Virus record (IMG/VR): IMGVR_UViG_3300023179_000040
Location: 1 to 64,000 of that record
Origin: a virus
Direction: 5' to 3' (one strand)
DNA length: 64,000 nt
The notes beneath the pieces were generated by a model. It made no database searches and was not told where the DNA came from. It saw only the letters and a program-made list of their open reading frames with translations. Below are positions 3,769 to 47,566 of this stretch, in pieces. Both the position numbers and the translations under genes were made by a program. The first letter of the stretch is position 1. The number at the start of each line of letters is the position of its first letter.

Positions 3769-3794
3769 TTTTCTTTCTCCTGTTGAGTGATGGT

Positions 3795-4045: not shown

Positions 4046-4069
4046 GTCTTTCTCTCTTTCTTATGAGCA

Positions 4070-4270: not shown

Positions 4271-4272
4271 CG

Positions 4273-4462: not shown

Positions 4463-4480
4463 CCCTAGCCACTTTCTTAA

Positions 4481-4770: not shown

Positions 4771-4777
4771 GTTACTC

Positions 4778-4933
4778 CTAACCAAACATCTCATATTCTT
4801 CATCGGTCAACACTACTTCATCTGGACGATAGCAGTTGTTACCATATAAATCACGATTCTTAGGACGCTTTTCCCATTCATCCATAAACCGATTATACTC
4901 TTCAATCCTACGCAGTTCTTCATCACCTTTCAC
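4778..4933 (-). CDS. 51-aa acidic early protein
   Basis: GTG start after a GAGAGA RBS: VKGDEELRRIEEYNRFMDEWEKRPKNRDLYGNNCYRPDEVVLTDEEYEMFG*. First gene after the element F promoter. Confidence 0.55.
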   Translation of the reverse strand: MKGDEELRRIEEYNRFMDEWEKRPKNRDLYGNNCYRPDEVVLTDEEYEMFG

Positions 4934-4961
4934 TCTCTCTTTCTCTACTTCTTATATCGGT

Positions 4962-5100
4962 ATTTTAGCAGACAATACTTTAGCTGTCAAGCGGAAAATT
5001 TCCTTTCAATGCTGTTAGGCTGTAAGGTCTTGCTGCATAATGAGTTACGTCAAATTTTGCGGCGCCAATCCGCTTTAAGTCTTTGCCCTATAAGAGTTTA
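4962..5100 (-). promoter_or_regulatory. Composite early element F
   Basis: TTGACA-N17-TAAAAT (4990-4962). Boxes at 5023-5047 and 5076-5100, 53 bp apart. Confidence 0.8.
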
Positions 5101-5107
5101 TAAATAC

Positions 5108-5257
5108 TTAGAGAATCGTACCATCACCACGAATCCGATACATGATACCACCGATACTGTACAGATAGATACCCTCGCCCATATTACGCACAAACGTGGC
5201 CGAATAACCGTGGCGAGCAACTAACCGGCGAACAACGTTTTGAACTTGAATGGTCAT
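5108..5257 (-). CDS. 49-aa early protein
   Basis: MTIQVQNVVRRLVARHGYSATFVRNMGEGIYLYSIGGIMYRIRGDGTIL*, with AAAGGA RBS. Lies between elements G and F. Confidence 0.65.
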   Translation of the reverse strand: MTIQVQNVVRRLVARHGYSATFVRNMGEGIYLYSIGGIMYRIRGDGTIL

Positions 5258-5287
5258 TTCTTTTTCCTTTTCCCTTGTGATGCTCTT

Positions 5288-5425
5288 ATTCTACAGATAT
5301 TTATCGGCAAGTCAATAGGGTATCCATAAATTTTTTTAGATTTTCTATAAATCCTTATCCATACAGCACTTACATCAAATTTTTGGTAGCAAATACGATC
5401 CAAGTCTTTGCTATATAAGTACTTA
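5288..5425 (-). promoter_or_regulatory. Composite early element G
   Basis: TTGACT-TGCCGATAAATATCTG-TAGAAT (5315-5288). Boxes at 5348-5372 and 5401-5425, 53 bp apart. Confidence 0.8.
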
Positions 5426-5543
5426 GGGGGTTTTTTTGTTTAACTTGCCCATTTTAACATTTTTCCAAAAATCGCAAGGAGATACAGAAATAGTAAGGAC
5501 ACTTTTATTGAAAATGTACTAGCTAAACTTCTCTATTAGCGCA

Positions 5544-15239: not shown

Positions 15240-16798
15240 AAATATTTTCCCAAGAGATCGTAGACGGTCTAGAAACCCAACTATCTGCATCAGCCTCTAT
15301 CTCATATGCTTCTATGGCTACTCCGTCGCCAAATTCTCGTCAACATAAAATTAATAATATTCAATCAATAGCATCATTAAGCGATAATGATCTATACTAT
15401 GTTCAATCTATTTTAGTTAGTTCATCTTGGAATAAAAATGATGATATATTCGATAAAACTGAGGTATGGAACGCAAGACGCACCCCTGAAGACAAACCAA
15501 CCAATTTAGAGCATGATGAGTCTACTATTATTGGACATATTACTTCTAACTGGCCAATTAAAGATGATGGTACACTGATTGACGATAATACTGATATTGG
15601 TGATTTGCCAGAAAAATATCATATATTAACTGGTTCTGTTATTTATAGAGGATTTACTAATCCCGATCTTAAAAGTAGAGCAGATAAATTAATAGATGAA
15701 ATAGAACAAGGTGTTAAATACGTAAGTATGGAGTGTTTCTTTAAAAGCTTTGATTATGGACTAATTAATAAAAGTACTGGAGAATATAAAGTATTACCTA
15801 GAAATGAAGCCACTGCATATTTAACAAAATATTTAAGAGCATATGGTGGACAAGGAGAACATGATAATTATAAGATAGGTAGAGTATTAAGAGATATTAC
15901 ATTTTCTGGAAAAGGCTTTGTTAATAAACCAGCTAATCCAGATAGTATTATTTTTACTAAAAATATGCTAGAAGAACAAAATACAAAAAAATCAACCGAA
16001 AAATTTGAAGATTTATCAATTGCGGGTGTATGTGATAATCAGACCAACCTTAATGTGGAGAATAACATTATGAATTTAGAAAATATTCAAGCAGAAGTTG
16101 CCGAACTCAAGACCAAGATTGAAGCTATGACAGCTTCTTCAGCCGAAGTAGTCAAAGAAGCTTATGCTTTAACTACCGAGCTTAAGGATAAGGTAGCCGC
16201 ACTAGAAAACGAAATTAAGGCCAAAGAGCAGACAATTGCCGAATTAACAGCTGCTCAGGAAGCTATTGCTGCTGAAAAAGAAGAAGCAGCTAAGAAAACA
16301 GCAGAGAAGAAGGTCGAAGAAGAAGCTGAAATGGATAAAACCAAGAGCGATCTTGCTGCTGCTCTTGAAACCATTGCAGGCTATAAAGCCAAAGAAGAAG
16401 AAATGGCTAAGAAAGAAAAGAAAATAAAGAGAGCTTCTGCTCTAATTGAAAATGGTCTAGACACAGAAACTGCTAATGCTACAGTCGATAAGTTTGAAAG
16501 TATGGATGATGAAACTTTCGCTGCTATGACCAGTCTTTTTGCTGCTACAAAGAAGAACAGTAATAAAGAAGAAGAAATGGAAGATGAAAAAGAAGAAGCA
16601 GCTAAGAAAGATACAGAAGAAGCTGAGGATACAAAAGACAAGGCTTCACAAAATACAGTTGATGCGTCTGTTCTAGAAACAGCAGAAGTAGAAACTGGTG
16701 TTAATCTTGGTGTTGGCGGAGAGGCCATATCAGCCGTTGAAGCAACACGCGCAGCATTGGTTGAATTCGTTTCCAGTAGACTCGGTAAGAAACAATAA
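15236..16798 (+). CDS. Prohead protease with C-terminal scaffolding domain
   Basis: NKNDDIF...KPTNLEH...IIGH...VSMEC...FSGKGFVNKPANP protease-like N-terminus, then an acidic coiled-coil C-terminus. Confidence 0.75.
   Translation: MKIFSQEIVDGLETQLSASASISYASMATPSPNSRQHKINNIQSIASLSDNDLYYVQSILVSSSWNKNDDIFDKTEVWNARRTPEDKPTNLEHDESTIIGHITSNWPIKDDGTLIDDNTDIGDLPEKYHILTGSVIYRGFTNPDLKSRADKLIDEIEQGVKYVSMECFFKSFDYGLINKSTGEYKVLPRNEATAYLTKYLRAYGGQGEHDNYKIGRVLRDITFSGKGFVNKPANPDSIIFTKNMLEEQNTKKSTEKFEDLSIAGVCDNQTNLNVENNIMNLENIQAEVAELKTKIEAMTASSAEVVKEAYALTTELKDKVAALENEIKAKEQTIAELTAAQEAIAAEKEEAAKKTAEKKVEEEAEMDKTKSDLAAALETIAGYKAKEEEMAKKEKKIKRASALIENGLDTETANATVDKFESMDDETFAAMTSLFAATKKNSNKEEEMEDEKEEAAKKDTEEAEDTKDKASQNTVDASVLETAEVETGVNLGVGGEAISAVEATRAALVEFVSSRLGKKQ
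16070..16798 (+). CDS. Nested in-frame scaffolding protein
   Basis: Internal ATG (MNLENIQAEV) preceded by a GTGGAG RBS and by its own GGTGTAT motif at 16025-16031. Confidence 0.55.
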   Translation: MNLENIQAEVAELKTKIEAMTASSAEVVKEAYALTTELKDKVAALENEIKAKEQTIAELTAAQEAIAAEKEEAAKKTAEKKVEEEAEMDKTKSDLAAALETIAGYKAKEEEMAKKEKKIKRASALIENGLDTETANATVDKFESMDDETFAAMTSLFAATKKNSNKEEEMEDEKEEAAKKDTEEAEDTKDKASQNTVDASVLETAEVETGVNLGVGGEAISAVEATRAALVEFVSSRLGKKQ

Positions 16799-19058: not shown

Positions 19059-19985
19059 ATGCCAGCAGCAGTATACGATACAGTTATAGAACAAGGATCC
19101 TCTTTTGTAATAAATTTTATATATACAGATAATAATGGATCTCCTATAGATATTACTAATTATTGCGTATTATTACAGTGGTTAACTAATACTAATGATT
19201 TGTATAGTTTTTCTAACAGATATGATGGTACCGATTATAGTTTAGTTGCAAAATCAGACGGCACAATTACATTAACAATACCATCAAAAACTACTAATGA
19301 TTATGTATTTGATAGCGCTGTTTATGATTTAGATATACAAGAACCCAACGAAGAATATCCTGGTAGCGGCCTTAAGACATATAGACTCGCTACCGGAACT
19401 ATTAGGGTCTTAAAAAGAATAACATCCATATTATCCTCAAACTGTGCAGATTTATCTTCTAGATTTGAACTTAAAGATACTTGCGATGTAGAATGTGGTA
19501 AATTAGATATCTATAGCGCTCAATATGACGGTGCTGGTTTTAGTATACCAGATATGTCATCTGCTAGTAGTTCTATTTATGTAGACGATACAAGAGTAGT
19601 AGAAAATATAGAAGTAGCTATTAATGGATTAAGACATAATAGCCCACAAGATTTATCATTTGTATTAACTCCACCGTCTGGAGACAGCATACTACTCTCT
19701 GCCAATTCTAAAATTACTAATTATAGACCAGGATTCAGTTGCATGTTTTCAAATAGAGCCCCCTATGATGCTTATATTAGTACTATAAATAGTGGTGGAT
19801 TATGTAGAATTGTTGATAAAGCTGCCGATGTATTATTTGATGGTGGTCCAATAGTAGGGTCTTTTGATCATTTATATACTAATAATAATATTCCTGGTAG
19901 TTGGTCTCTTACTATCAAAGATAGTGATGTTGGAGTATCCGGCTCTATCGATTCCTGGAAACTAATCATTACATACCAACCATAA
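19059..19985 (+). CDS. Virion protein: N-terminal beta-sandwich plus proprotein convertase P-domain
   Basis: IEQGSSF...AVYDLDI N-domain. C-domain IPD...VENIEVAINGLRH...DLSFVLTPPSG...GSWSLTIKD...GSIDSWKL. Confidence 0.65.
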   Translation: MPAAVYDTVIEQGSSFVINFIYTDNNGSPIDITNYCVLLQWLTNTNDLYSFSNRYDGTDYSLVAKSDGTITLTIPSKTTNDYVFDSAVYDLDIQEPNEEYPGSGLKTYRLATGTIRVLKRITSILSSNCADLSSRFELKDTCDVECGKLDIYSAQYDGAGFSIPDMSSASSSIYVDDTRVVENIEVAINGLRHNSPQDLSFVLTPPSGDSILLSANSKITNYRPGFSCMFSNRAPYDAYISTINSGGLCRIVDKAADVLFDGGPIVGSFDHLYTNNNIPGSWSLTIKDSDVGVSGSIDSWKLIITYQP

Positions 19986-25997: not shown

Positions 25998-28900
25998 ATG
26001 GCATCAGGCTTTAATCTCACAGCCCAGTTAAATCTTAGAGGACCGTCAAATATTGGCGTGATCGTAGCCGATATTCGTAGACAGATAGGATCTATTAATG
26101 CTGCTGTTAATCTCAGATTAGATCCGAATGCTATAAGAAATACAACTCAACTTAATGCTTCTTTACAAGGTCTTAATAGAACCCTTAATCAAGTTACATC
26201 ATCAGCTTCTAATGCAGCTGCCGCTATTGGTAGATTATCTAATGCCTTGGGTAGAGTTAATGCTGGTGGAGTAGCTCAAAATTTAGGACGAGTAGCTGCA
26301 TCTACTAATACTATTGGTCAGTCAATGAGAGATGTTAGCACCCGCATAGTTGCTGCATCATCAGAAATGCAAGAGTTCGGTAAGCAATCAGGATTGGCCG
26401 TAAGACGCTTTGCAGCATTTAGTACTGTTACTGGCGTTATATATGGTTTAACTAATGCTATTAATCAAGGAGTTAAAGCTTATATAGATTATGATAGACA
26501 ATTAGTTAAATTACAACAAGTAACTGGACAATCTGCGGCCGGTTTAAAATCTCTTGAAGATACTATCACTCAATTAGCTGTTGGTTTAGGTGTTGGGTCT
26601 GCTGAATTAACACAAATTTCTAGCACATTAGCACAAGCTGGTTTGAGTGCCAAAGATACTGAAAGAGCACTTAAGGCATTAGCATTAAGTTCCTTAGCAC
26701 CATCGTTCGATAGCATGAACGAAACCGTAGAAGGCGCTATTGCGTTGATGAGACAGTTTGGTATCGGAGCCAATCAGCTAGAAAAAGCTCTTGGTTCTGT
26801 TAACTCTGTTGCTGCTAAGTTTGCTGTTGAAGCTAGCGACTTAATTACAGCTATTCAACGTACCGGTGGTGTGTTCGCCACAGCAAGTAGAGGAGTAAGC
26901 GAAGGAACAGATGCTTTAAATGAGTTCTTAGCAGTCTTTACTAGTGTTAGAGCTACTACTCGTGAAAGCGCAGAGACTATTGCTACTGGCTTGAGAACTA
27001 TTTTTACTAGAATTCAAAGAGAAGATACAATAAATGCTCTTAAATCATACGGAGTAAATCTTACAGATTTAGATGGTAAATTCGTCGGAGCATATAATGC
27101 TGTAGAATTATTAAGTAAAGGATTATCTAAACTAGATCCAAGAGATCTTAAGTTCTCTCGTATTGTTGAAGAGCTTGGCGGTTTTAGACAAATCGGTAAA
27201 GTTATTCCATTAATTCAGCAGTTCGCCACTGCTCAAGAAGCTCTTAAGGTTGCACAATCAGGTCAGGGATCATTAGCTGCCGATGCTGCTAAGGCTCAAG
27301 AGTCATTAGCTATTCAAACAGCTAAAGTTAAAGAAGAATTTTTATCGCTCTTTAGAGAAATTGGTAAAAGTGATAGTTTTCAGACCTTGGTGAAAGGAGC
27401 ATTATCTGTTACTAGTGCTTTAATTAAAACCGCAGATAGTGTCAAAGGAGTATTGCCAATATTAGGAGTTATGTTGGCATTTAAAGGAGCATCCGCTATT
27501 ACTCAATTTGGTTCTGGATTTGTTCAAGGTATTCGCGGTTCTGGTGGAGCCAGAGGATTAGGTCAGAGACTAGGTGGTGGTTCTGGTATGTCTAACGGAG
27601 GTCCGGTAAGATACTATGCTTCTGGTGGTCTTGTTCCTGGCTCCGGAGACACAGACTCAGTTTCTGCTAGACTAACTCCCGGCGAATTCGTTATAAATAA
27701 GAGAGCAGTTAAAGCTATAGGTACCAGTAATCTGAATAGAATTAATAGATATGCTGTGGGAGGACCAGTACCAATCAGACAATTGGCTAGTTCTACCAAG
27801 GGTGGATCAACAATTAAAAAATATAGAGATACTAATTCTGATATTATACAAGACATAGATCTTGTCTCTTCTGCTATAGATCGTAAAAATTTACCATTAA
27901 CAGATGCTGATAAAAAATATCTTTTTAGAGCAACGTTAGCGGATAAGGGATCGGGTAAAAGATTTAAGGGTAGTATTGCCTATTTAAATAAGAATGTTTG
28001 GGGCGATGCTTATGAAGAAATCATAGCTAAAAAGCTAGGCTCTGGTTGGCAAAAAACATCATCTATAAAAGAAATGGGTCCGTCTTATCCATTAGATCTA
28101 TATAATTCTAGTACTGGTGAATTAGCAGAAGTTAAATTTACAGATAAGCCAGTTAGTATAGCACATATTCTTAGTAAAAAATTAAGACAAAAACTTATTT
28201 CTTCTGGTAGAACTAAAAAAACAGGATGGGGATTTACTCAATCTGTTGGCGAAAATGTTAATCTTGGCAGGGCTACTGTTTATGAGCCTAGCGAAAATGA
28301 AAAAAGAGAGTTTGTGAACGCATATAAAACAGGAGCTTTGGATGCTAAGGCTTCTACAGGAGGTATCATTCGTAAGTTTGCGGATGCTGGACTAGTCAGC
28401 GCCACCGGAGGTAAACCAGTCTCGGCATCACAAATTATTAGGCTCCTAGGAGCAGAAGGAGCTGCGAAGGCTGGTAATATCAGCGCTAATGAAGTTAACA
28501 GAATCTTGCGTATCCGCAAGCCCGATGCTATAGAAGCAATGATTCAAAATAATATCCTAAAAGAATATCAAAAAACAATAAATAGAAGAGAGGGCGCTCA
28601 AAAAGCAAGAGGAACTAGATTAACATCTCAAGGCTTATTGTTTGGTGTCGCTGGTATGTTTGGATCCGCATTTCCGCCTGTTATAAAGACTATAGAATCT
28701 AATTTATTAAAATCTCCAGTTAGTGTTAAAATTATGAGCGGTATTATGAGTGAGAGTACCGCTCAATCTGTAGATGAAATGTTTGCTAGTTCTCTTAACA
28801 AGACAGCAAATAAAGCAGCTAAAAAAATTATGGTTGCTGATATTCTTGGTAAGGTTGGTTTGGGTAGAGAATTAAATTTAGATTTTGATAGAACACTAGC

Positions 28901-31900
28901 TTTTGGGGCAGATAATATTCTGTCCGATCCTAAAAAGCCAAAATTTGTTGAATTTTCAGATAGAAATAAAGTATCAGGAGCACTTAAAACAGCCAAATTA
29001 AGTTTACTAGGTAGAGAACTAGCCAGTTTAGTATCTAGTAAACCAGAATTATTAAATAATCTAAGACTTATTACCGCCAGACCAGCATCAACATTAGATC
29101 TAATTCAGTCTTGGTTGTCTAGCAAAGGATTACCAATACCACTAAGTCAGTTTAAGGGTCTTGGTGGTCCAAGCGTTTCTGGTTCTCAGATAGCCAAACT
29201 CAAAGCTGCTTTATTAAGTCCAGGGTCATTATTTGTTGATGATGATGTTAGAAATATTAAAGCCGCTCGTAGAAGATCCAAAGAAGGCATAGAATCATAT
29301 CGCTATAGCAACCGCAGAAACACAACTAATATAAATGGAGATGCAACCGCACAAGGTATTCTTTTTGAAAAAGTAATTGAAAAGCTTGGTGGGCCTTTAG
29401 CCCTTAAAGGTGGCGGATTAGATTTTCCAGAAGGACTAAAAGGTGCAGCTAAGTATTTTGGTATTCCGGCAAATATACCAACAGATGCAAAGCGTACCAT
29501 TAATGGACCATCAACAGTAGAAGATAATATTATTACCTATCTAAGAACCAAGGGCTACGCTACTGGAGGAGAGGCAAACAAGAATATTCTAGCCATGCTC
29601 ACTCCGGGCGAACTAGTATTATCTCCGGATCTCGCATCGTCTATTGGAAGATCTAAATTAGATAAACTAAATCATGCAGAAAAGTTTATAAAGAAAGCTA
29701 GTGGTGGAACTATTAGTATGGTTCCAGGTTCTGGAGACGGAGACTCTTACGGTCCTGTACCACTAGAGGTTGGTAGTTATGTTATTAGAAAGAAAGCGGC
29801 TCAAGCTCTAGGATTCAATACCGGAGGATATGTTCAAGGTTTTGCTGTTGGAGGACCAACACTATCAGCAAGACCAGCAAATCCAACAGTAGATAATGTG
29901 AGAATAGATACAAATGTAGTATCCCTGCTACAAAATGTGGGCAAAGCCTTAACTGATCTTGGATTATCGTCTAATAGTGCCGCATTATTACTTAAGAAAA
30001 ATGCAGATATAAACTATAGAGAAGCTCAAAGAGCGCTAGAAGCAGACGTTAGACGTATGAGAGTTGCTGGAGCATCAGCTCAAGAAATTTTAGATGTTGA
30101 AGCTAGATTGGCTAATGTTAGAAATTCAGCAGCTAGTAATATTGCCGCAAGACAAACATTATCAAATACATCAGGACAACAATTACAAGAAATACAGTTT
30201 AGGGCACAAAGAGAACGAGAAGATATGATTAATCGCAGAAGATCTGTTGCTAGAGCAAGAGGTCGAAGCGAAGATGAGATTAATGCTGCTATCGCAGATC
30301 CTAATTATCAACGATTTGTTAATAATAGAAGTTTTGAAACTGCAACGACCGCAGTTACAGGAGTTAGTGCTCGTACACTAAGATCACAAAATATTAGTGG
30401 GTCAGATATTGAACAAGTAGTTCGTCAGTCTATGATGGATCGCAGAACATTGGCTCAAATGGATAGGCAATACGTATCTCAAAGAAGACAGGAAATTTTT
30501 AATCAATTAAGAGCAGAAGCTGGAGTTACAGCTACTAAATCTCAAATTAGAGTATTAGCTTCTCAGGCTTTAACTATGGCCCAACAAGAAGTTAAAGAGA
30601 GAAGACAAATACTAAACCAACAGGCCGCTGCTGCTGGAGTAATAGGTCCTGGTAGAGGTGGAATATTAGGTACAGGTATTGGTATAGGTCCATGGTCAAA
30701 TGATCCTCGACAAGGAGCTATTTATAGAACATTATCTCCGATGATGGGAGGAATTACTCCACGTAATATTATGGGCGGTATCAGAAATTTTGGTTCATCA
30801 TTAGGTACTGGAAATGCTGGATTTTTCTTAAGTATGGGGATAGGCGCGGTTGCTGGACAATCTGAAAATATTTCATCATTGATGGGTGGCGATAAAAAAG
30901 CTCAAAGAGGACGAGCCGCAGCTATAGAAGGAGGCTTAAGCACCTTTGCTTCTGGACTATCATTAGCTAGTGGTGCCGCAATGATTCCTGTTGTTGGACC
31001 ATTTGTTGCCGCTGCAACTGTTGCTGGTAGTGCTTTGTTGGCGTTTAAGGACGCCACGAATGCTTCTGCAAAAGCTCTTAAAGAATATGAACAAGAGCAA
31101 AGAACCAAAAATATAGATGATATTAATGATAAAATTAATAGAGCATCTGAAACATTTCAAAAAACAGGTAATTCTAACGAGTTAATTAAACTTTCACAGC
31201 AAGCTAATGGGGCTATTAATGAAGATCTTCTTATTAAAACTAGAAATGCTGCTGAGGAAAAGGCTAAATCTCAGAGTACCTTTAGTTGGTTGATGGGAGA
31301 AAATAAACCAATTCTATCTAGTGAAGACTATAAATCTCTAGGTAAGGATGCTGCTAAACAAGCAGAGCAGTCAGCTCAGTCTGCTCGTATGATTATAGAA
31401 TCTAGAATACAAGGAGGAGCAGATCTTAATCAATACGGATTAACAGAAGAATTTGCTAAATTATCAAATATTATTGCTCAGGCCGATCCCACCTTTACAA
31501 CTTTTATAGCATCAACAAAGAATATGACTGATGCTGAAAGAGCACAAGCCATATCGGTAAAATTAGCTGAGAGAAGATTATTATTAATGAGAGATGCAGG
31601 ATTAGTAGCTACAAATAGTACTGTTATGGCATCCAAGGCGATGGAAGAAGCGAATAAAGCAGGTAGAAAACTAGCTCAAACTTTTGAAAGCATGAACAGG
31701 TCATTTTCTCAAGCTTTGGGCAGAACACAGTATGAGGCCGGTGTTAATCTGAATAATAGAGAATCTAGATCAGAAGACTTGACTGGCTCTTCTAGAATTA
31801 TGATATCATCGTCTAGAGATCTCAATATTGCTGAAAATCCATTAGCATATGATTCTGCTACTAGGGCTCAAACATATGGCCGAGTAGCTAGAGAAATTGT

Positions 31901-34900
31901 TAGACCAGATATGGCTGGATTAGATCTCGCAGAAAGAAATCGAAGAGCTAATGAAGCTAATCTAATAAGTCAAACATTAAATTTTGATACTGTTGGTGTT
32001 CGTAATCGTACTGTAGGCGCTGTTAATGCTATAAATAATGGGGGAACTACTTTTGAACAAGCTTCAGCAGCATCAAGGACCAAACTAGAACAAGAATTAG
32101 CCAATGCACCAAGCTCTATTAGAGATCAGATACTTAAAGAATTTGATGATATTATTAATAATATAGCTAAGGGAGATAGTAAAGATAAATCTAATCAAGA
32201 TAAAATTAAAATATTAGGCGAAACTCTACAGAATGATTTAGGTAAAAGTGCTATAGAGGCCAAGGACAACCTGAACCAGATGGCTCTTGAATTTTTGAAA
32301 TTTAAGGACAGTACTCTAAAACAATTTGTTGATTCTCTTAATAAGGTTGTTCAAGAACAATTAAAAGCCGCTGAAGCTATTAGACAGGCTAGATCTATAG
32401 TCATTGAATCACGGGTGGCCTTGAGAGAACTTATTAGCGGTGGATCGATAGGACTAGGAGAAAGAGCACAAATTATTAATAATAATGTAGGATCTCTAAC
32501 AGGAGGCATAACTGATCCTACTCGCATAAGACAAAATATTCAGAATCTTAGCGCAAGAAAATCAGAACTAAATAATAAATTAAATGATCCTTCTTTATCT
32601 AAGGAAGAAAGAGATAAAGCCATAGTAGAATTAGAAGGCTTAACACTATCTCTTAATAAAAATAGAACAGCATTAGATGAGTTAGCTAATAGTACAGAAT
32701 TAGCTAGTGCTGCTATGTCTCAGCTACAAAATTTACAGAAGATGCAAGCTGATAGACTACAGAATATTGATCAAATACTCACATCAACACCGCAAGAACT
32801 TAGAAAATTTAATGAGTCACTCATTAGAGTTCAACAAAGAGCAATGGGTATCGATCCTGGGCCATCACGGGAAGCTCGCAAAGCATATAACAGAACACTA
32901 AGACAAACCGGTGGAAATGTTCAAGCTGCTATGATGGCCGGTCAGGCTCAGATGGCAGAGGATAGAGGTACTGATTTAAGAAATATGGAACAGTATCGTA
33001 GTACTTGGATTTTGAATCAAATGAATGAGGCTCGTGCTCAGGGCATAGAATTAAGTCAAGAAGAAGCTAATAGAAGATTCAATGCTAATGCCGCTAATGT
33101 TAGAGGCCAAATGGCTAATGAGTCTGGTGCTGCTAATATGTATGGCCCAGGAATCAATGAAGGCATAATGGCTAGTGTTGATCCTATGAGAGACCCAGCT
33201 TTTGCCGCCACTGCTAGAGTGGCCATGGCAGCAAGTGATAATCAAGCCAGAGCCAAAGAACAGCAAGCTATTTTATTAACAACAAATGCAACAGAGGAAT
33301 TTGGTAATGCATTAAAATTACTAACAGATCAAATGCTGTTAATTAGTCAAAGATTCTCACTAATGCAACAACAGCAAGGAGCAGATTTAGGATTAGCTCC
33401 GCCTCCTGGACAAATGAGACCACCGGTCATAGTACCCCCACTGTTTCCTGCACAACGAAATCAGCCACAAAGAAAGGCTTTGGGTGGTTTGATTTATGCT
33501 GCTAATGGTCAATTTGTAGACTTTAAGCCTATGGGGACTGATACCATACCAGCAATGTTAACTCCAGGAGAATTTGTTGTTAATAGAACTGCTACCGAAA
33601 AACACTTGCCTCTATTAACCGCTATTAATGGAGGTAACGAAGTTAGGGTTGATGGTATGAGTAGCGGAGGATTAGTTTATTTGGCTAGAGGTGGTAGGCC
33701 AGGAATGAATATGATGACCAATGGAGGCAATAGGGTCGATGGGCGTGTTCCCAAGAGATTGGCCGTGCGTAGAGATTATGCTACTTTTTCTAGATTAGAT
33801 GCAGATAGTAGCGGTTATTTAACATCAACAGAGATTGATGACGAGATCTTATCAAGATTAGATGGTAATAATGACGGTAGACTCAGTACTGTAGAATTTT
33901 TTGGAGCATTACCAAATACTAGAGATAGAAGATTTTTAGGTAGAGTAGACTGGCGTAAACCTACAATTATTACTAGAGCACTAGAAGCACAAGATATTAG
34001 TTATAGAGTATTTTCTGAAAATAGATATGCTAAGTTTGCAGATAAATACAGAGACCCTAGCACCATAGAACAGGGATTGATGGTCGATCCTAGAAGACCA
34101 AAAGATCCTGATGCTGTTATTCCAAAGATCGATATACCATCATTAGTGCCTAATGATCCTAGATCCCGTATGACAATGGACATGCAGAGATCTGTAAATG
34201 GTAATCTTATTCCTATTCCCAAAACACTTAAAGAAAAAGACCCTAAATCTTTACGCAATTCATTTTATAGATTAGATGTTAATGAAGATGGCGTATTGTC
34301 TGGTACAGAATTAACCTCGTATCGTGATTTAGATACTGACTTAAATCAGCAAATTACAGAAGATGAGTGGCTAGGTGTGGGTTTTGATCCTTATGATTCA
34401 TTACAAAGGGAAAGATTTAATATTACTAATCCTTTTGGTAAAGGAATGGATGCTCGTAGAAGAGCTTTAGAGTCCGGAATGGCAGCATACGAAAGAAGCG
34501 TTGCGACCGGCGAGCCAATACGCGATAGAAAAGGAAATATTGTTTTTGACGGTACTGCTGAAAGCTTAAAGAATAAAAGAGAAGAGTTAGCAACTATAAG
34601 AGCAGCTAGAGGAGGAAAGTCTCAAACACAATTAATTCGTGAACAAAAATATAATGATCGCTTAGTTAATCAAAGACTAGGATCTTCTGGATATGCTGTT
34701 GGCAAGGCTCAAAAGCAGATAGATACAGAAAGAGAAATGTTTGAGGAAGAAAGAAAAAAAATCAGCAATGCCAATCCATTAATGACGGAAGATGAGGTGA
34801 TACAAGCTACAACGGATTCTCTTAACAAAGGCGGATATACTATTGGAGCGGATGTTAATTGGTGGAAAAATGAAAGAGGAATCACTGCTACCGCCGGTCA

Positions 34901-37900
34901 ATATGACGAAACTAGAACCTTAGAAGCTATAAAAAATAGCGATGCTCTAGCTACTAATAGCGATCCAACCGGAGCAAAGGCAAGAGCATCAATAGATGCC
35001 TATGCCGCATCACAAGGAGCCAGAGCACAAGCAGATAGAGTAAGTAGAGGTATGGGTGATGAACCTATTAGCCCTGATGCTGCTGTAGTTGGTACGCAAG
35101 GACCGGTATCGTCTTTAAACAGAGCGATAGATAATGCTGAAGTTGGTAGAGCAGTAGATACTAGAGTTAGAAGAGAAAAACAAGATCAATTAGCAGCTGA
35201 TATTCAAGCTGATGTTGCCAGATCCGCAGCTATGGACAAGAGAGATAAAGAGCTTGGTATATACACCGGAGATATCAATAGAGATATCTATGTTTCTGGT
35301 ATGGGCGATGTATCTTATCAGCCTGGAATGGGATCAAAAATATCTATCGAAGAACAAAAACAGAGAAGACGTGAAAAGGTTATTAAAGACAGATTAACAT
35401 TCACAGATAAAACTGGTAAATATTCACAATCTGGTACTATAGATAGTATTGATGCTAAGACCGGCACTGTGCGTATTGCTAAAATTGATCCAAACACCGG
35501 GGCACCAGTTACGAAAAAAGATAAAGATGGGATAGAAAATCAAGTATATACAACTATACCAATAGATCAATTAGATACAAAATCTCAAGCTAAAATCAAT
35601 AAAGCTCTAGAAAAAGATAGAGCACAGCAAGCAGCAGTGGCTAATGCTACGCTAGATAAAGCCGTTCAAGGCATTTCGATATCTGCTGAGGTGGATTTAT
35701 CATTACCATCTGAATCAACTAAAGCCAAAGCAGATGCCCTAGCTAAAGAAACTATGGAGAGAGCTAATGCTGATCAGGCTAGGTTTGATCAAAGCATTTT
35801 ACCAACATCTAAGCCATCTATCGTTATTGATCCTATTACTCGTCAGCCTAAAACTATTGATGGACAGAATATAGATGTTAAAGCTATAAGGCAAAGATTA
35901 GAACAAGATCGTCAAGATTTACAAGCCCAAATAGAAGATTGGGTTAAGAATGGACAATTTGGCGAAGGTGTGGCTCGTACACAAGATATGAATCTTACTC
36001 AAGCTAAGATTGATAGGTCACTACAAGAATTAGCAGATTTAGAAAATGCAAAATACGAATTTGATACCGCAAGAGAGGAAAAGAATCTTGCTACACAAAA
36101 AAGATATGAAGAGCTAAAGAAAAAGAGTGAAACTGGTAGAGGTCTAGCGTCAGTTAAGGAAGCAGATGAATTTGCTAGACTATCTATTGAGAGAGGAGTT
36201 GCTCCGGGAGAAATTCCTGGAGGAAGAACTGTTGTTGTTGAAAGAGCCATGAGAAGCGAAGCTTTTGCGACATCAGATAAAACTGATGCTTTTGGTCAAC
36301 CTGTTGCTGTTGGAAATATGGAAAAACAATCAACAGAGCAGTATACTAAAGATCTTGTTGAGGAGAAGAGAACTTCACAATATAGTAAATTAACATCGGA
36401 AATTTCTAATAATGCCAGTCAGTCTGTAGAAAATTTAACAGGTTCTCGTTATTTAGGTAATACCGCCGGTTTTGTAACCACACTAGGTTTAGGTATTGTA
36501 TCACCAGAAAATGTTGTAACGCAGGTTGCTACTGGAGGGTTAGGACTTATCCCAGCATTAGGTGTTGATGTGGCTAGTGCCGGAGGAGGTGCTCTAGGTG
36601 CTTATGGTGCAGGAGATTCTCAAGGAGTAATAGAAGCTGCGTTTCAAGGAGCCACTACATTAGGTATGACGGGGGCTTTTAGAGCTTTAGGCGCAGCACT
36701 ACCGTATATTCCTGCTGTTAAGATGCCTAATTTAAGTTTCCCTTATAAGTCATTTGGAAATGGCGTACAATCTTTATTAGATACCGCAGATGAGTCTCTT
36801 ATTAGGGGCATATATGGTGTTGATCCTAAAGTATATCGTAGAGCAGAAAATATAGCTGGTATCAGGGCGGATATACAGGCCGCAGCTGAAGAAGAAGCCT
36901 TCGTCAATTCTGTCACTGATTTTATGACTGGTAAAAATAGTCCAGTTGTTAGAGCGATAAAAGAGGCAGATGCAGACTTTAGATCTGCTCCAGACAGAGC
37001 AGCACAACAAAGAAAAGCATTAGATATAAAAAAACAAGAAGCAACAGCACGACTAGAGCAACAAAAAATAGATGCCCAAAAAGCTGAACAAGAATTTGTA
37101 GATAGTCAAATTACGGATATTCGTGATCGGGTTATAAGAGATGTAGAAGCTGCTAAACAAAATGGAGCCACAGCATCCGGCATAAAAGCAATTGAGTATA
37201 GAGGTAAGGTTGAATTAGAGGAAAAAGGATTATTGCCTAGAGCTGAAGAAAGACTTAATCTTGCTCAAGAAACAAGACGCAAAGCAGAAGCTGATCAAGC
37301 TATTAAAGAAATGCAAGACTCATTTAATACTACTAGCGCACCAATACCATCGAAACCATCACCTAAAAAGCCAAAGAAACTTGCTACTGGAGGTATTGTT
37401 TATGCTGCTAATGGAGCATTAATCAATGCCCAACAAAAGGGTTCAGACACAGTACCAGCCATGCTTACTCCGGGAGAATTTGTCGTTAACAGACAAGCAA
37501 CTCAACAACATTTACCAGTTCTACAAGCTATTAATAAAGGATACTATAGCAGAGGCGGAATGGTACAATATTTAGCTGATGGCGGTATTGTTGCTCCTAA
37601 GTACTATATGTTTGGTGGATTAAGTAGCGGTATGGGCTTCTTAGCTTCATCTTTCAACAAGGGTAAGGACGGAGCATTAAGTGACGTCGATCCTGCTATA
37701 ATAGCAGAATTCGGCAGGGCTGTACAGTCCCTTAAAGATACTTTTGGTTCACTAGAAAACTTTAAAGATGTTGGCGAGAATATTAAACAGGCCATGAGCA
37801 CAATGAGTCAAAATGTAGCAATGTTTGGTGAGTCTATCAACTCCATACCTCAAGAAGTTGTACACAACATGAGCGCAACAGTTATGCAGCACGTTATGGG

Positions 37901-38063
37901 CTTGGACGGAGCAGAACAAAAATACGCTAAACAATTTGATAGTAAAATGGAGCAAGTGGCACTTAATACAGTAGCCACAGCTCGTCATAGAGATGCTAAA
38001 TTACACGAAGAAGACCCAGCAACAGTTGGTCAGATTATTGGTCATCAAGCAGGATTGGTATAG
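25998..38063 (+). CDS. Giant tape measure protein with embedded cargo domains
   Basis: TP901-like TMP core at the N-terminus (YDRQLVKLQQVTG...LAQAG...IATGLRTIFTRIQ). Internal PD-(D/E)xK, HAD, EF-hand and SHD1 motifs; four LTPGE(F/L)V modules. Confidence 0.85.
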   Translation: MASGFNLTAQLNLRGPSNIGVIVADIRRQIGSINAAVNLRLDPNAIRNTTQLNASLQGLNRTLNQVTSSASNAAAAIGRLSNALGRVNAGGVAQNLGRVAASTNTIGQSMRDVSTRIVAASSEMQEFGKQSGLAVRRFAAFSTVTGVIYGLTNAINQGVKAYIDYDRQLVKLQQVTGQSAAGLKSLEDTITQLAVGLGVGSAELTQISSTLAQAGLSAKDTERALKALALSSLAPSFDSMNETVEGAIALMRQFGIGANQLEKALGSVNSVAAKFAVEASDLITAIQRTGGVFATASRGVSEGTDALNEFLAVFTSVRATTRESAETIATGLRTIFTRIQREDTINALKSYGVNLTDLDGKFVGAYNAVELLSKGLSKLDPRDLKFSRIVEELGGFRQIGKVIPLIQQFATAQEALKVAQSGQGSLAADAAKAQESLAIQTAKVKEEFLSLFREIGKSDSFQTLVKGALSVTSALIKTADSVKGVLPILGVMLAFKGASAITQFGSGFVQGIRGSGGARGLGQRLGGGSGMSNGGPVRYYASGGLVPGSGDTDSVSARLTPGEFVINKRAVKAIGTSNLNRINRYAVGGPVPIRQLASSTKGGSTIKKYRDTNSDIIQDIDLVSSAIDRKNLPLTDADKKYLFRATLADKGSGKRFKGSIAYLNKNVWGDAYEEIIAKKLGSGWQKTSSIKEMGPSYPLDLYNSSTGELAEVKFTDKPVSIAHILSKKLRQKLISSGRTKKTGWGFTQSVGENVNLGRATVYEPSENEKREFVNAYKTGALDAKASTGGIIRKFADAGLVSATGGKPVSASQIIRLLGAEGAAKAGNISANEVNRILRIRKPDAIEAMIQNNILKEYQKTINRREGAQKARGTRLTSQGLLFGVAGMFGSAFPPVIKTIESNLLKSPVSVKIMSGIMSESTAQSVDEMFASSLNKTANKAAKKIMVADILGKVGLGRELNLDFDRTLAFGADNILSDPKKPKFVEFSDRNKVSGALKTAKLSLLGRELASLVSSKPELLNNLRLITARPASTLDLIQSWLSSKGLPIPLSQFKGLGGPSVSGSQIAKLKAALLSPGSLFVDDDVRNIKAARRRSKEGIESYRYSNRRNTTNINGDATAQGILFEKVIEKLGGPLALKGGGLDFPEGLKGAAKYFGIPANIPTDAKRTINGPSTVEDNIITYLRTKGYATGGEANKNILAMLTPGELVLSPDLASSIGRSKLDKLNHAEKFIKKASGGTISMVPGSGDGDSYGPVPLEVGSYVIRKKAAQALGFNTGGYVQGFAVGGPTLSARPANPTVDNVRIDTNVVSLLQNVGKALTDLGLSSNSAALLLKKNADINYREAQRALEADVRRMRVAGASAQEILDVEARLANVRNSAASNIAARQTLSNTSGQQLQEIQFRAQREREDMINRRRSVARARGRSEDEINAAIADPNYQRFVNNRSFETATTAVTGVSARTLRSQNISGSDIEQVVRQSMMDRRTLAQMDRQYVSQRRQEIFNQLRAEAGVTATKSQIRVLASQALTMAQQEVKERRQILNQQAAAAGVIGPGRGGILGTGIGIGPWSNDPRQGAIYRTLSPMMGGITPRNIMGGIRNFGSSLGTGNAGFFLSMGIGAVAGQSENISSLMGGDKKAQRGRAAAIEGGLSTFASGLSLASGAAMIPVVGPFVAAATVAGSALLAFKDATNASAKALKEYEQEQRTKNIDDINDKINRASETFQKTGNSNELIKLSQQANGAINEDLLIKTRNAAEEKAKSQSTFSWLMGENKPILSSEDYKSLGKDAAKQAEQSAQSARMIIESRIQGGADLNQYGLTEEFAKLSNIIAQADPTFTTFIASTKNMTDAERAQAISVKLAERRLLLMRDAGLVATNSTVMASKAMEEANKAGRKLAQTFESMNRSFSQALGRTQYEAGVNLNNRESRSEDLTGSSRIMISSSRDLNIAENPLAYDSATRAQTYGRVAREIVRPDMAGLDLAERNRRANEANLISQTLNFDTVGVRNRTVGAVNAINNGGTTFEQASAASRTKLEQELANAPSSIRDQILKEFDDIINNIAKGDSKDKSNQDKIKILGETLQNDLGKSAIEAKDNLNQMALEFLKFKDSTLKQFVDSLNKVVQEQLKAAEAIRQARSIVIESRVALRELISGGSIGLGERAQIINNNVGSLTGGITDPTRIRQNIQNLSARKSELNNKLNDPSLSKEERDKAIVELEGLTLSLNKNRTALDELANSTELASAAMSQLQNLQKMQADRLQNIDQILTSTPQELRKFNESLIRVQQRAMGIDPGPSREARKAYNRTLRQTGGNVQAAMMAGQAQMAEDRGTDLRNMEQYRSTWILNQMNEARAQGIELSQEEANRRFNANAANVRGQMANESGAANMYGPGINEGIMASVDPMRDPAFAATARVAMAASDNQARAKEQQAILLTTNATEEFGNALKLLTDQMLLISQRFSLMQQQQGADLGLAPPPGQMRPPVIVPPLFPAQRNQPQRKALGGLIYAANGQFVDFKPMGTDTIPAMLTPGEFVVNRTATEKHLPLLTAINGGNEVRVDGMSSGGLVYLARGGRPGMNMMTNGGNRVDGRVPKRLAVRRDYATFSRLDADSSGYLTSTEIDDEILSRLDGNNDGRLSTVEFFGALPNTRDRRFLGRVDWRKPTIITRALEAQDISYRVFSENRYAKFADKYRDPSTIEQGLMVDPRRPKDPDAVIPKIDIPSLVPNDPRSRMTMDMQRSVNGNLIPIPKTLKEKDPKSLRNSFYRLDVNEDGVLSGTELTSYRDLDTDLNQQITEDEWLGVGFDPYDSLQRERFNITNPFGKGMDARRRALESGMAAYERSVATGEPIRDRKGNIVFDGTAESLKNKREELATIRAARGGKSQTQLIREQKYNDRLVNQRLGSSGYAVGKAQKQIDTEREMFEEERKKISNANPLMTEDEVIQATTDSLNKGGYTIGADVNWWKNERGITATAGQYDETRTLEAIKNSDALATNSDPTGAKARASIDAYAASQGARAQADRVSRGMGDEPISPDAAVVGTQGPVSSLNRAIDNAEVGRAVDTRVRREKQDQLAADIQADVARSAAMDKRDKELGIYTGDINRDIYVSGMGDVSYQPGMGSKISIEEQKQRRREKVIKDRLTFTDKTGKYSQSGTIDSIDAKTGTVRIAKIDPNTGAPVTKKDKDGIENQVYTTIPIDQLDTKSQAKINKALEKDRAQQAAVANATLDKAVQGISISAEVDLSLPSESTKAKADALAKETMERANADQARFDQSILPTSKPSIVIDPITRQPKTIDGQNIDVKAIRQRLEQDRQDLQAQIEDWVKNGQFGEGVARTQDMNLTQAKIDRSLQELADLENAKYEFDTAREEKNLATQKRYEELKKKSETGRGLASVKEADEFARLSIERGVAPGEIPGGRTVVVERAMRSEAFATSDKTDAFGQPVAVGNMEKQSTEQYTKDLVEEKRTSQYSKLTSEISNNASQSVENLTGSRYLGNTAGFVTTLGLGIVSPENVVTQVATGGLGLIPALGVDVASAGGGALGAYGAGDSQGVIEAAFQGATTLGMTGAFRALGAALPYIPAVKMPNLSFPYKSFGNGVQSLLDTADESLIRGIYGVDPKVYRRAENIAGIRADIQAAAEEEAFVNSVTDFMTGKNSPVVRAIKEADADFRSAPDRAAQQRKALDIKKQEATARLEQQKIDAQKAEQEFVDSQITDIRDRVIRDVEAAKQNGATASGIKAIEYRGKVELEEKGLLPRAEERLNLAQETRRKAEADQAIKEMQDSFNTTSAPIPSKPSPKKPKKLATGGIVYAANGALINAQQKGSDTVPAMLTPGEFVVNRQATQQHLPVLQAINKGYYSRGGMVQYLADGGIVAPKYYMFGGLSSGMGFLASSFNKGKDGALSDVDPAIIAEFGRAVQSLKDTFGSLENFKDVGENIKQAMSTMSQNVAMFGESINSIPQEVVHNMSATVMQHVMGLDGAEQKYAKQFDSKMEQVALNTVATARHRDAKLHEEDPATVGQIIGHQAGLV

Positions 38064-45460: not shown

Positions 45461-47566
45461 ATGGTATATCCTACTGGAAATAATAGTGCAAATTATAATT
45501 CTTGTGCTAATTGGGATGGTTCGATAAATGGCAATGTTACTACTGTTGGAAGTAATGGTGGGCCATCTGCTTATGGTACTTATGACCAGAGCGGTAACGT
45601 TAATGAATGCGTTATATCATCAAACCAAAGTTATTTGTTCGGTGGTGATTTTAATGACCCCGATTTCTATTTATCTGCTGCTGCTGCAACTCCAGTAGCA
45701 CCATTTGCTACATATACATTAGGATCTCCTAGCATGGGTTTTCGTTTAGCGTCATTATTAGACATTTATAGCTATAGTAGTTTTGTTGCGGTAGGAGATG
45801 CATCTAATCTTAATAATATCTATGGATGTGGATTTGTCCCTTATGCCTATAAAATAGGTCAATATACAGTAACTGTTTGTGAATATGTTGAGTTTTTAAA
45901 TTCTATAGCAAAAACAGATACTAATAAAGTATATGATATTAATATGGCTAGTGATAGATGCGGGATATTAAGATCTGGAACACCTGGTAATTATATATAT
46001 GATATTCGCTCCACATATGCTAATAAACCAGTTGTTTATGTTAGTGTTATGAATATGTTGAGATATTGTAATTGGCTACACAATAGAAAGCTATCTGGTA
46101 CACAGGATGAAACTACAACAGAGGACGGTGCATATTATATATCGCCGCTCGCAGTAATTCAACAAAGACCTAATCCCCTGTATAGACTGCCAACAGTAAA
46201 TGAATGGCATAAAGCAGCTTATTACAAGGGTGGTGGTACTAACGCTGGTTATTGGACTTATGCTACTCAAACAGACACAGCCCCAATATGTGTAACGGCA
46301 AATTCCAATGGCGATGGACCTTTCTTGTCCAATTATATATGCTCTTATGTTGTTCCTGGTCCTACTCCAACACCTACTAATACCGTAACACCATCAGAAA
46401 CACCAACAAATACTCCTACGCCAACTGTTACTCCAACCAACACAATCACTCCGACAGTCACCCCAACTAATACCGTAACACGAACAAATACTCCAACACC
46501 TACTGTTACTCCAACTGTTACTCCAACCAACACAATCACTCCGACAGTCACCCCAACTAATACAAGAACTCCAACCGTTACTCCTACTAATACCGTAACA
46601 CCATCAGAAACACCAACAAATACTCCTACGCCAACTGTTACTCCAACCAACACAATCACTCCGACAGTCACCCCAACTAATACCGTAACACCAACAGTGA
46701 CAAAAACACCTACTCATACTCCAAGAATAACGAGCACACCAACACCGTCACCAACCAAACCTGTACCCCCCACAATGATTACTCAAAAACTTCAATTTGT
46801 TAAATATTTAGGACAATCTGATATAGAAATATCTTCATTATCCAGTAATATATTGAATCAAATAGACACTATATACTATATTGACAATCAATCTTCATGG
46901 CTCTCATGGAGTGCTAACGGAATCAATAGTTTAAGCTCTTTACAAAGATATAAAACATATTTAATTATTAGCAAAAATAGTAATCCTAATTATAGTCTAT
47001 ATAGCAATACAGATATATTGGATTCAACATCATTTACTATTCTTAATAAAAATATTTCTATAGAAACTTATCGAGGACATAGCTCTTTGATTATTAATAA
47101 TGCATCATGGAAGAATAATATTAATAAAATTATAGGATTAAATAGCACTAGTTCGTCGTATATTAGTTGGGATTCATTAATACCAGCTAATCTGAATAGT
47201 CTAATGTCTTTAGAACCGAATAATGGATATATCTTTTTTGCAAATACAACACCCATAGTATTATGGTCAGAGACTTTAAGATCAATTAATAATTGGACAT
47301 ATAGATATAATAATTTTTTGTCTTTAAGATTCATACCTAATACATTTGAATCCACCATAGAACTATCTGTACCAATGGTGGACACTTTAGATCTTCCTTC
47401 TGTTGGAACACCAGCTCCACTACCGTCTACTTGTGTAGTAACCAGAAATGGTAGTAAAATTGGAGATTTACTATTTATACCAGCATATAATGGTAAAAAT
47501 ATAACAGCTATTATCAGTGGAATATCATATTCATCCACTATTAATAATGGTCAAATTAATTTTTAA
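45461..47566 (+). CDS. FGE/SUMF1 (CLec-fold) domain protein with Thr-Pro stalk; domain circularly permuted
   Basis: [12 protein letters not shown]...GG...MGFRL precedes IGQYTVT..EYVEFLN...KPVVYVS...YCNWL...[13 protein letters not shown]. Confidence 0.75.
46361..46770 (+). repeat. Thr-Pro (TPT[N/V]) coding tandem repeat
   Basis: 46507-46680 is identical to 49261-49434. Confidence 0.9.

Follow-up and report, generated by a model that had tools for sequence, protein, structure and literature searches.

The stretch of DNA analysed here, referred to as the window, comprises the first 64 kb (64,000 nucleotides) of the IMG/VR viral record IMGVR_UViG_3300023179_000040, a contig of 106,612 bp with an estimated completeness of 71% that comes from an uncultured phage with an estimated genome of about 150 kb. 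On its forward strand, at 25,998 to 38,063, lies one genuine TP901-type tape measure protein (TMP) of 4,021 residues. A first reading of the letters without database searches (the sequence-only reading) had described this protein as a TMP built as a cargo polyprotein and punctuated by repeated xAxGG / LTPGEFVVN modules. The assignment as a single TMP is confirmed by the uninterrupted open reading frame (ORF) and by two profiles above their cut-offs, PF10145 (76.4 bits against a cut-off of 33.2, residues 191-382) and TIGR01760 (92.2 bits against 28.8, residues 148-476); the PHROG TMP families align to residues 50-533 only. The N-terminal core is covered by 113-119 of 119 aligned relatives (112-119 when the first module is included), it forms cluster 0 in all 162 TMPs of the family set described below, and its DNA is 72-77% similar to many loci. 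Among 50,697 deposited phage genomes no close relative of the protein was found, the best matches being TMP cores of ~22-28% identity in Rhodococcus and Bacillus phages. Past the core the chain is divided by repeated copies of a joint module, and we conclude with high confidence that it is a modular TMP with joint-delimited slots.

The joint module is ~75 residues long, follows the pattern [FY]AxGG ... D[ST]VPAxLTPGEFV ... LxxLN ... GG and is present in three full and two degenerate copies (M1 to M5, Table 1), with the LTPGE[FL]V core at residues 559, 1201, 2521 and 3823. Its recurrence had been noticed in the sequence-only reading at four intervals, and the cores do fall there, the intervals corresponding to residues 532-590, 1186-1286, 2491-2568 and 3793-3875. 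Whole-protein self-BLAST was uninformative, and the internal repeats were detected by windowed BLASTP. In segment-wise BLASTP comparisons M4 and M5 are 61% identical across 57 residues (E 1.6e-22), and M1 matches M2, M3, M4 and M5 with E-values of 1e-4 to 1e-6. A family hidden Markov model (HMM) built from 659 distinct copies gives one match over the M2-M3 region (residues 1161-1270, i-E 1.7e-4). Its consensus reads [FY]AxGG, a short variable stretch, G[TS]D[TS]VPAxLTPGEFVxN[RK]xA, LxxLxxIN and then one or two xGG turns; the D, E and N residues of the module are invariant and its T/S residue is nearly so. Neither Pfam nor NCBIfam holds an entry for the module itself.

All 16 short GG motifs listed in the sequence-only reading are present in the translation, and their clustering is far above chance. 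Four module zones, together 10% of the length, hold 20 of the 45 GG dipeptides (binomial P 2.5e-9), and the motif [YFKLM][AS]xGG is seen 12 times, always within these zones, versus 1.28 +/- 1.12 times in 2,000 shuffles (maximum 7). The remaining site, at 28,350-28,390, proved to be a conserved partial module, the 'mini-joint', which is also a homology breakpoint. Its residues G788, G789, F794 and G798, in the pattern GGxIRKFAxxG, are invariant in the alignment of relatives (A1), and 26 starts of high-scoring segment pairs (HSPs) fall in residues 751-800.

Table 1. Features of the tape measure protein encoded in the window. Residues are numbered along the protein and positions along the window.
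Feature	Residues	Positions	Strand	Basis or remark
TMP gene	1-4021	25998..38063	+	single ORF, 4,021 residues, without Cys
TP901-type TMP core	1-510	25998..27527	+	kept in all relatives
Gly-rich hydrophobic stretch ahead of M1	475-535	27420..27602	+	hydropathy peak 1.62 at residues 482-505
Module M1, first-slot subtype	532-600	27591..27797	+	BLASTP, HMM; closest to lambda gpH 735-790
First PD-(D/E)xK-like motif set, YEE ... PLD ... ELAEVK	660-730	27975..28187	+	motif; nuclease-like candidate
Partial module ('mini-joint'), GGIIRKFADAG...ATGG	785-806	28350..28415	+	conserved glycines, homology breakpoint
HAD-superfamily phosphatase domain (predicted)	935-1110	28800..29327	+	fold and motifs
Second compact D...(D/E)xK motif set	1112-1180	29331..29537	+	motif; nuclease-like candidate
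Modules M2 and M3, tandem, degenerate	1186-1290 (1186-1230, 1232-1290)	29553..29867	+	BLASTP to M1, E 1e-6 and 8e-5
Backbone cassette 1	1291-2480	29868..33437	+	helix-former-rich by composition; presumed ruler/channel part
Gly-rich hydrophobic region in cassette 1	1541-1700	30618..31097	+	candidate membrane-inserting hairpin
Module M4, full, Pro-rich linker before it	2490-2570	33465..33707	+	HMM i-E 1.6e-35
Lineage-specific cassette	2581-3785	33738..37352	+	singleton in cassette clustering
EF-hand pair 1	2596-2638	33783..33911	+	EF-hand_1 29.7 bits (cut-off 25.4), EF-hand_6 27.1 (25), segment scored alone
EF-hand pair 2	2751-2790	34248..34367	+	EF-hand_5 28 bits (cut-off 25.9), segment scored alone
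Second Gly-rich hydrophobic stretch	3481-3570	36438..36707	+	hydropathy 1.45 at residues 3510-3536, Gly fraction 0.22
Module M5, last-slot, Pro/Lys-rich linker before it	3793-3875	37374..37622	+	HMM i-E 2.6e-42
C-terminal tail	3881-4021	37638..38060	+	cluster 9, last slot every time

Relatives were collected by a homolog search, which gave 857 significant proteins of 2.2-7 thousand residues among the candidates scored, and by an alignment-based scan of IMG/VR, which yielded 218 loci, 80 of them retained; a single query of 451 residues had returned no relatives. The family set comprises 162 complete, non-identical TMPs of 1,565-7,794 residues. They carry 2-10 modules each (median 5), the first starting at about residue 512, with a median tail of 145 residues beyond the last one. 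Among the 803 module copies compared, the best match lies in the same slot of another phage for 606 and within the same protein for 18. First-slot copies match another first-slot copy best in 161 of 162 cases and last-slot copies another last-slot copy in 142 of 162. The two most similar copies in the window, M4 and M5, are 54% identical at the DNA level, and their longest exact run is 16 nt. Slot-wise orthology and synonymous divergence together point to ancient duplications without gene conversion, each copy having been kept by selection at the protein level. Every module copy is under strong purifying selection in its slot. Gene conversion or recent duplication, considered as the source of the repeats, was rejected because of the slot orthology and the divergence at synonymous sites.

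We cut the 162 TMPs at their modules and clustered the resulting 949 pieces, which revealed a colinear plan. The core is followed by slot 1 (clusters 4, 5 or 10), by slot 2 with cassette 1, by an optional cassette 3 or 7, by variable pieces and finally by the C-terminal tail (clusters 2, 6, 9, 11 or 14). In the window protein the order is core (511 residues), module, cluster 5 (559), module, cassette 1 (1237), module, singleton (1210), module, tail of cluster 9 (150). Cassette 1 occurs in 127 of the 162 TMPs and is in slot 2 every time. The shortest members (1,565-2,435 residues; L040:10001-14695, L037:10001-15874 and L061:10001-17305) have two modules, end inside cassette 1 and are devoid of the HAD part, which argues that cassette 1 is ancestral backbone and that the enzyme-like parts were added.

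The same boundaries appear in the alignment of the 119 relatives. Coverage is ~53-78 over most of slot 1, increasing towards M2, and 33-108 over cassette 1; it reaches 118 at M4, drops to 24 and then to 1-11 across residues 2600-3750, and is back at 118 at M5. Homology to most relatives thus stops just past M4 and restarts at M5, and the slot between the two is common to ~6 of the 119 relatives, all of which have the modules. Ends of long HSPs are enriched in the modules, 44% of them falling within +/-30 residues of a module, an area of 16% of the length. Between phages, similarity at the DNA level is seen in the core, in M4 and M5 and, for a few loci, over the HAD region, and nowhere else. 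The proposal that the GG modules are junctions for domain insertion is therefore supported by the homology breaks at M4 and M5, by the enrichment of HSP ends and by the HAD insert. Its corollary, that the cargo should vary while the modules stay fixed, holds for the distal slot (1-11 of 119 relatives) but not for slots 1 and 2, which contain conserved cassettes in colinear order.

The content of slot 1 was modelled with AlphaFold (AF2) as residues 590-1190 (601 residues, 30 aligned relatives). The model has a mean pLDDT of 79 and contains several alpha/beta domains. For residues 935-1110 the block-mean pLDDT is mostly 75-97, with two lower blocks, and all leading Foldseek matches in the PDB are HAD enzymes (best E 6e-4). 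VIA-align, whose top hits are likewise all HAD enzymes, places 126 residues of this domain on the T4 Pnkp 3'-phosphatase 5uj0_B (Z 11.4, rmsd 2.9) and gives Z 10-11 to class B and class C acid phosphatases, and the BFVD matches are phage phosphatases and PNKP phosphatase domains. All four HAD motifs, D962-x-D964-x-T966, T/S1026, K1069 and D1081-D1082, are present, each kept in 28-29 of 29 relatives. At the sequence level the segment has no Pfam match at E<=5, and a PDB profile search reaches HAD chains with E ~1-3 over motif IV only. According to the model, residues 935-1110 are a HAD fold with conserved catalytic motifs. The HAD phosphatase that the sequence-only reading had placed between the modules is thereby upheld, and the domain is likely to be catalytically active.

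The HAD domain is flanked by two motif sets, and each follows the PD-(D/E)xK order of a helix Glu, a strand Asp and (D/E)xK. In the first (residues 672-713), the 7-8 relatives in which this part is present keep E673, E711 and K713, and the model shows an alpha/beta topology there with a block-mean pLDDT of ~55-90. ESM Atlas searches with residues 605-935 gave sub-threshold leads to toxins of the restriction endonuclease (REase) fold (0.75-0.77); in a six-frame profile search of the 106-kb record neither Tox-REase-7 nor Tox-REase-3 had a match. The second set keeps E/Q1124, D1142, D/E1163 and K1165 in 28 of 28 relatives and is modelled with high confidence as helix-strand-helix-strand-helix. 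Judged by their motifs, both sets are nuclease-like candidates.

Cassette 1, which in the shortest family members also supplies the C-terminal part, has a fraction of 0.52-0.54 for the residues AELKQRM and is low in Gly and Pro except in its Gly-rich stretch. That stretch contains the strongest hydropathy peak of the protein (1.94 at residues 1647-1685, Gly fraction 0.19). No Pfam, PHROG or PDB match was obtained for cassette 1, and for the lineage-specific cassette there was no PDB match and no usable match in the ESM Atlas. The Gly-rich hydrophobic stretches named in the sequence-only reading are found at residues 1647-1685 and 3510-3536, and the EF-hands it named are supported by Pfam scores above the cut-offs and by canonical loops. 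The EF-hand scores exceed the cut-offs when the segment is scored alone and fall just below them within the whole protein. Pair 1 has canonical DxDxxG...E loops. In pair 2, which also gives EF-hand_7 24.2 bits (below the cut-off of 30), the loop DVNEDGVLSGTE is canonical and the second loop is looser, so that three of the four loops are canonical overall. Past the core, separate scans of the segments with Pfam, NCBIfam and PHROG found no family outside the modules other than the EF-hands, and PDB sequence searches of the core and of the inter-module segments gave nothing significant. By composition, roughly half of the sequence between the modules (residues 1291-2480 together with much of 2830-3785) abounds in helix formers, is low in Gly and Pro and is interrupted by Gly-rich hydrophobic stretches; it belongs to no known enzyme family. 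The picture of globular enzyme and ligand-binding domains between the modules holds for the HAD domain and the EF-hands but is not supported for this half. The C-terminal tail is presumed, by analogy with residues 818-849 of lambda gpH, to be the hub-binding end.

A further property of the protein is the complete lack of cysteine. None occurs in its 4,021 residues, 141 of the 162 family TMPs are likewise without it, and the whole family has 35 cysteines in 827,782 residues versus 1.3% in the other ORFs of the window. The enzyme-like inserts have the same bias. Such avoidance fits domains that have to pass unfolded through the tail and function outside the reducing cytoplasm, or a need to prevent cross-links within the virion.

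The TMP gene stands in a recognisable structural region, with matches to terminase, portal and major head proteins located upstream of it. It is directly preceded by two ORFs of 101 and 290 residues and followed by large ORFs, and the genes next to it gave no match to a named tail family. In a six-frame profile search of the 106-kb record, which is ~71% complete, no phage sheath was found, and the lack of a detected sheath gene points to a tail that is long and non-contractile, and probably to a siphophage. Some other features of the window are recorded here as separate observations. Downstream of the TMP, the ORF at 45,461-47,566 (701 residues) contains an FGE-sulfatase/C-type-lectin-like domain (PF03781, E 6.5e-13) and probably encodes a fibre or adhesin. 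In the head-tail region, the ORF at 19,059-19,985 (308 residues) has a proprotein-convertase P-domain match at its end (PF01483, E 8.6e-8). A second very large ORF, of 2,087 residues, occupies 55,419-61,682 in the distal tail region. The first 5,500 nucleotides (1-5500) have a GC content of 0.43-0.44 versus ~0.33 elsewhere and carry only short ORFs (<170 residues) on both strands; neither a tRNA nor an Rfam family was found in them.

The module is not confined to this family. Searched against lambda gpH, the module HMM matches residues 754-803 with E 2.5e-7 in a one-sequence hmmsearch, and by eye the likeness runs from FHFATGG (~735) to YATGGYVG (~790). On this sequence evidence the module of the window protein is homologous to gpH ~735-790. 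M1 scores 16.3 bits against the curated lambda TMP family TIGR01541 (E 0.004, profile positions 228-303 of 332), far below the cut-off of 104.75; the window TMP accordingly does not belong to that family, and the module part alone is common to both. Searched against the PDB, a profile of the relatives (A2) found 8iyk_H (lambda gpH) with E 0.033 and 8zdo_S (gp16 of mycobacteriophage Douge) with E 6.9e-9. In Douge gp16 the module occurs twice internally, at residues 958-1029 and 1412-1462. In ordinary TMP PHROGs, M5 together with the tail aligns to positions near the C-terminal end, e.g. 691-741 of 810 in phrog_25241. A tblastn search with M1 hit 140 deposited phages, mostly in TMPs of Gordonia, Rhodococcus, Mycobacterium and Klebsiella phages. 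It also matched hypothetical proteins of T4-like cyanophages (P-TIM68, KM359505.1, 7762-7914; Bellamy, NC_047838.1, 7792-7953), and since these phages have contractile tails the module is not restricted to siphophage TMPs. Against 1.84 billion representative proteins the module profile gave 24,108 matches at E<=1e-3 and 1,322 at E<=1e-30, and among the listed top 150 matches most proteins have 2-8 thousand residues and 3-11 module copies. In the literature searched, which was not exhaustive, neither the module nor the giant TMP family is described.

The lambda copy matters for the question of processing. Lambda gpH sheds a C-terminal piece of ~14 kDa from a glycine-rich region, which yields gpH* and gpHC (~690-853); the precise cut site and the catalyst have not been identified, and gpHC is resolved only at residues 818-849, where it is bound to gpI (PMC12617516). 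The lambda module (735-790) accordingly lies in the unresolved head of gpHC, just past the Gly-rich hydrophobic stretch. M1 is preceded by such a stretch (residues 475-535) in the same way. The TMP of phage T5, pb2, is likewise processed: the cut separates the hydrophobic stretch from the peptidase domain, and the tail retains both products (bioRxiv 10.1101/2022.09.20.507954).

On balance we favour, at somewhat better than even confidence, the reading of the window protein as a TMP on the lambda/TP901 plan with multiplied joints, with slots that hold enzyme-like inserts and with joints at which the chain may be cut. The protein follows the ordinary plan of N-terminal core, Gly-rich hydrophobic stretch, joint module and short C-terminal tail, the part that binds the hub in other phages. 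Long ago the joint module was multiplied, and the gaps between its copies became fixed slots. Slot 1 carries the HAD phosphatase flanked by the two nuclease-like sets, slot 2 the apparently helix-rich cassette with the strongest membrane-like hairpin, likely serving as ruler and channel, and the distal slot a cassette of fast turnover, here with two EF-hand pairs. The whole protein would lie unfolded or extended in the tail lumen and exit ahead of the DNA, as TMPs do, after which the inserts would regain their fold and function in the envelope or cytoplasm of the cell. The joints would organise the chain and would probably be cut during tail maturation, as gpH is near its single copy, and cut joints would free the enzyme-like pieces as separate proteins. 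Taken by itself, cutting of one or more joints in the virion has slightly less than an even chance. We are doubtful about a bolder version, in which the module determines TMP maturation as an assembly-triggered, possibly self-catalysed cleavage element that lambda gpH shares, and in which its multiplication made the ruler a programmable polyprotein; this would bring a changeable set of refolding enzymes (a Pnkp-like phosphatase, nucleases, calcium-binding modules) into the host ahead of the DNA.

Several observations weigh against the favoured reading. Peptidases of the S78 (Peptidase_S78), C39 and S49 families were all absent from the six-frame search of the ~71% complete 106-kb record, and the ORF at 15,236-16,798, which follows the portal gene and was labelled a protease in the sequence-only reading, has no Pfam or PHROG match. 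The case for cutting in the window family is one of analogy. The module is conserved at 50-70% identity over 75 residues, far more than a protease site would occupy, and it may be an oligomerisation or partner-docking element instead. Modelled alone as a monomer by AlphaFold it has a pLDDT of 64 and one short helix. The D[ST] pair, nearly invariant in the window family, is missing from the lambda copy, so any chemistry that relies on these residues would not be common to lambda. On the side of the cargo, the nuclease domains proposed in the sequence-only reading retain their conserved motifs and, for the first set, a compatible alpha/beta topology, but they gained no fold or profile match, the Foldseek and VIA-align lists being occupied by the HAD domain. 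An SHD1 domain, likewise proposed, is not supported: PF03983 had no match at E<=5 when the segments were scanned and none at E<=1 when the 106-kb record was searched in six frames, and the resemblance at residues 3133-3195 is one seen by eye, together with a precomputed PF03983 match in one relative (P0091). The 'helical ruler' character suggested for cassette 1 and the distal cassette comes from their composition.

A rival account, which we consider rather unlikely, takes the modules as uncut structural joints that fold only in the TMP oligomer or on a partner (tail tube wall, tail assembly chaperone or hub) and set the register of the chains or anchor the TMP at intervals. The chain of 4,021 residues would then stay intact, specify a tail of several hundred nm and be ejected whole with its enzyme-like domains tethered. 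A large module conserved slot by slot in each copy is what a folded or bound element would look like, the low-confidence monomer model is compatible with folding on assembly, and the glycine pairs at both flanks resemble hinges. The Douge TMP, with its two internal copies, is treated by its authors as a full-length trimer (PMC13033339), and long helical TMPs do set tails of nearly 1 um, e.g. in P74-26 (PMC10034513). Against it stands the lambda copy, which sits in the region that is cut (PMC12617516), and folded domains of HAD size, in three or six copies, would be too big for the tail lumen, so that the inserts cannot add length in the ordinary way. The tail of about 600 nm that had been calculated from 4,021 residues at about 0.15 nm each is arithmetically right but presumes an all-helical and uncut protein.

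Cutting of another kind, by a module that cleaves itself and makes the TMP an autoprocessing polyprotein without a separate protease, appears improbable. It would agree with the failure to find a protease in the 106-kb record, with a gpH cleavage catalyst that was never identified (PMC12617516) and with the module's D, E and N (invariant) and T/S residues (nearly so), which could in principle do chemistry. Nevertheless the module has no likeness to known autoproteolytic folds in Pfam, NCBIfam or the PDB, the D[ST] pair is not kept in lambda, and the monomer model has no compact fold. The lambda cut occurs only after tail assembly, which indicates an assembly-dependent event. Two specific chemistries, a Ser-Lys element like that of LexA or signal peptidase and an Ntn-type G|T self-cleavage, were considered and rejected because the candidate residues are not conserved across the module subtypes and lambda. 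Least probable of all is the view of the modules as evolutionary scars of TMP gene fusion or duplication, at most recombination patches without a present role: the core with M1 does resemble a complete small TMP minus its tail and M5 with the tail an ordinary TMP C-terminus, and DNA similarity and breakpoints do gather at these parts, but 803 copies retain a near-invariant core despite duplications old enough to leave 54% nucleotide identity, where neutral scars would decay, the cassettes stand unshuffled in fixed order, and a longest inter-copy exact run of 16 nt is a poor substrate for homologous recombination.

The usual view of a TMP is that of a helical ruler to which a single cell-wall enzyme is sometimes attached. 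In the family described here, which is very large and uncultured and counts its giant members in the hundreds, the ruler has become a carrier with slots, and the module that marks them matches 24,108 protein clusters although no domain entry is devoted to it. Cut joints would mean that several proteins are injected via the tail lumen, by a route other than the one taken by ejection proteins packaged in the head. With the HAD domain a TMP would contain an embedded enzyme that is not muralytic, and no report of such a case was found in the literature searched. If the joints are uncut, the predicted tails would measure 0.5 to >1 micrometre, or non-helical mass would be packed in the lumen, which is of structural interest in either case. 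The module adjoins the gpH cut, whose site and catalyst have been unresolved since 1974, and it therefore offers a concrete mutable target in a tractable phage.

Among known systems the closest is lambda gpH (8IYK), which combines a ruler, a Gly-rich hydrophobic stretch, the series [FY]AxGG ... GEFV ... L..L ... [FY]AxGG and a short hub-binding tail, and in which the cut that produces gpHC falls just before or at the module. Lambda gpH has one copy in 853 residues, whereas the window TMP has three full and two degenerate copies in 4,021 residues and its relatives have up to ten. Moreover gpH has neither an enzyme domain nor D[ST]VPA, and the core of the window protein is of the TP901 type. T5 pb2, which is cut into pb2* and the muralytic pb2C, shares with the window protein an enzyme domain past the hydrophobic stretch. 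The cut occurs in tail morphogenesis, and the enzyme has been proposed to be released to the periplasm and to refold there (bioRxiv 10.1101/2022.09.20.507954). In contrast to pb2, with its one cut and one peptidoglycan-degrading domain, the window TMP has several candidate joints, and its inserts are not cell-wall enzymes. Douge gp16 (8ZDO; PMC13033339) carries the same module in a cultured phage, but with 1,699 residues it is much shorter than the window TMP, and no enzyme cassettes are known between the copies in Douge or other actinophage TMPs. Only residues 1658-1699 of gp16 have been modelled. Its module copies fall in the unresolved part of the TMP, in a cultured phage that is structurally studied and tractable.

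In concept the window protein also resembles the polyvalent proteins, giant polypeptides with several conflict-type domains that enter the host with the DNA and are often thought to be processed. These proteins are reportedly head-associated and are said often to carry a peptidase of their own. The window protein differs in that its carrier, given the TMP core at its N-terminus, is the tail, in that no peptidase domain was found in the TMP and none of the peptidases looked for (S78, C39, S49) in the record, and in that it appears to consist mostly of backbone. Its effector domains amount to one confirmed enzyme fold, the predicted HAD domain, and two nuclease-like candidates, and most of its length is free of effector-like domains. 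Iyer et al. 2017 (PMC5512222) treat polyvalent proteins as multidomain conflict proteins and make no mention of tape measure proteins. The TMP-related effectors of contractile injection systems (CIS; PMC11126660, PMC13277306) likewise combine a TMP-like coiled-coil carrier with an exchangeable C-terminal domain and are ejected through a tail-like tube. They are bacterial cargo proteins that measure a few hundred residues and carry a single functional domain, and a joint module has not been reported for them, whereas the window TMP is a structural protein of a phage. A TMP with embedded domains and possible cleavage in maturation is thus of a known kind, and its slotted form with repeated joints is new.

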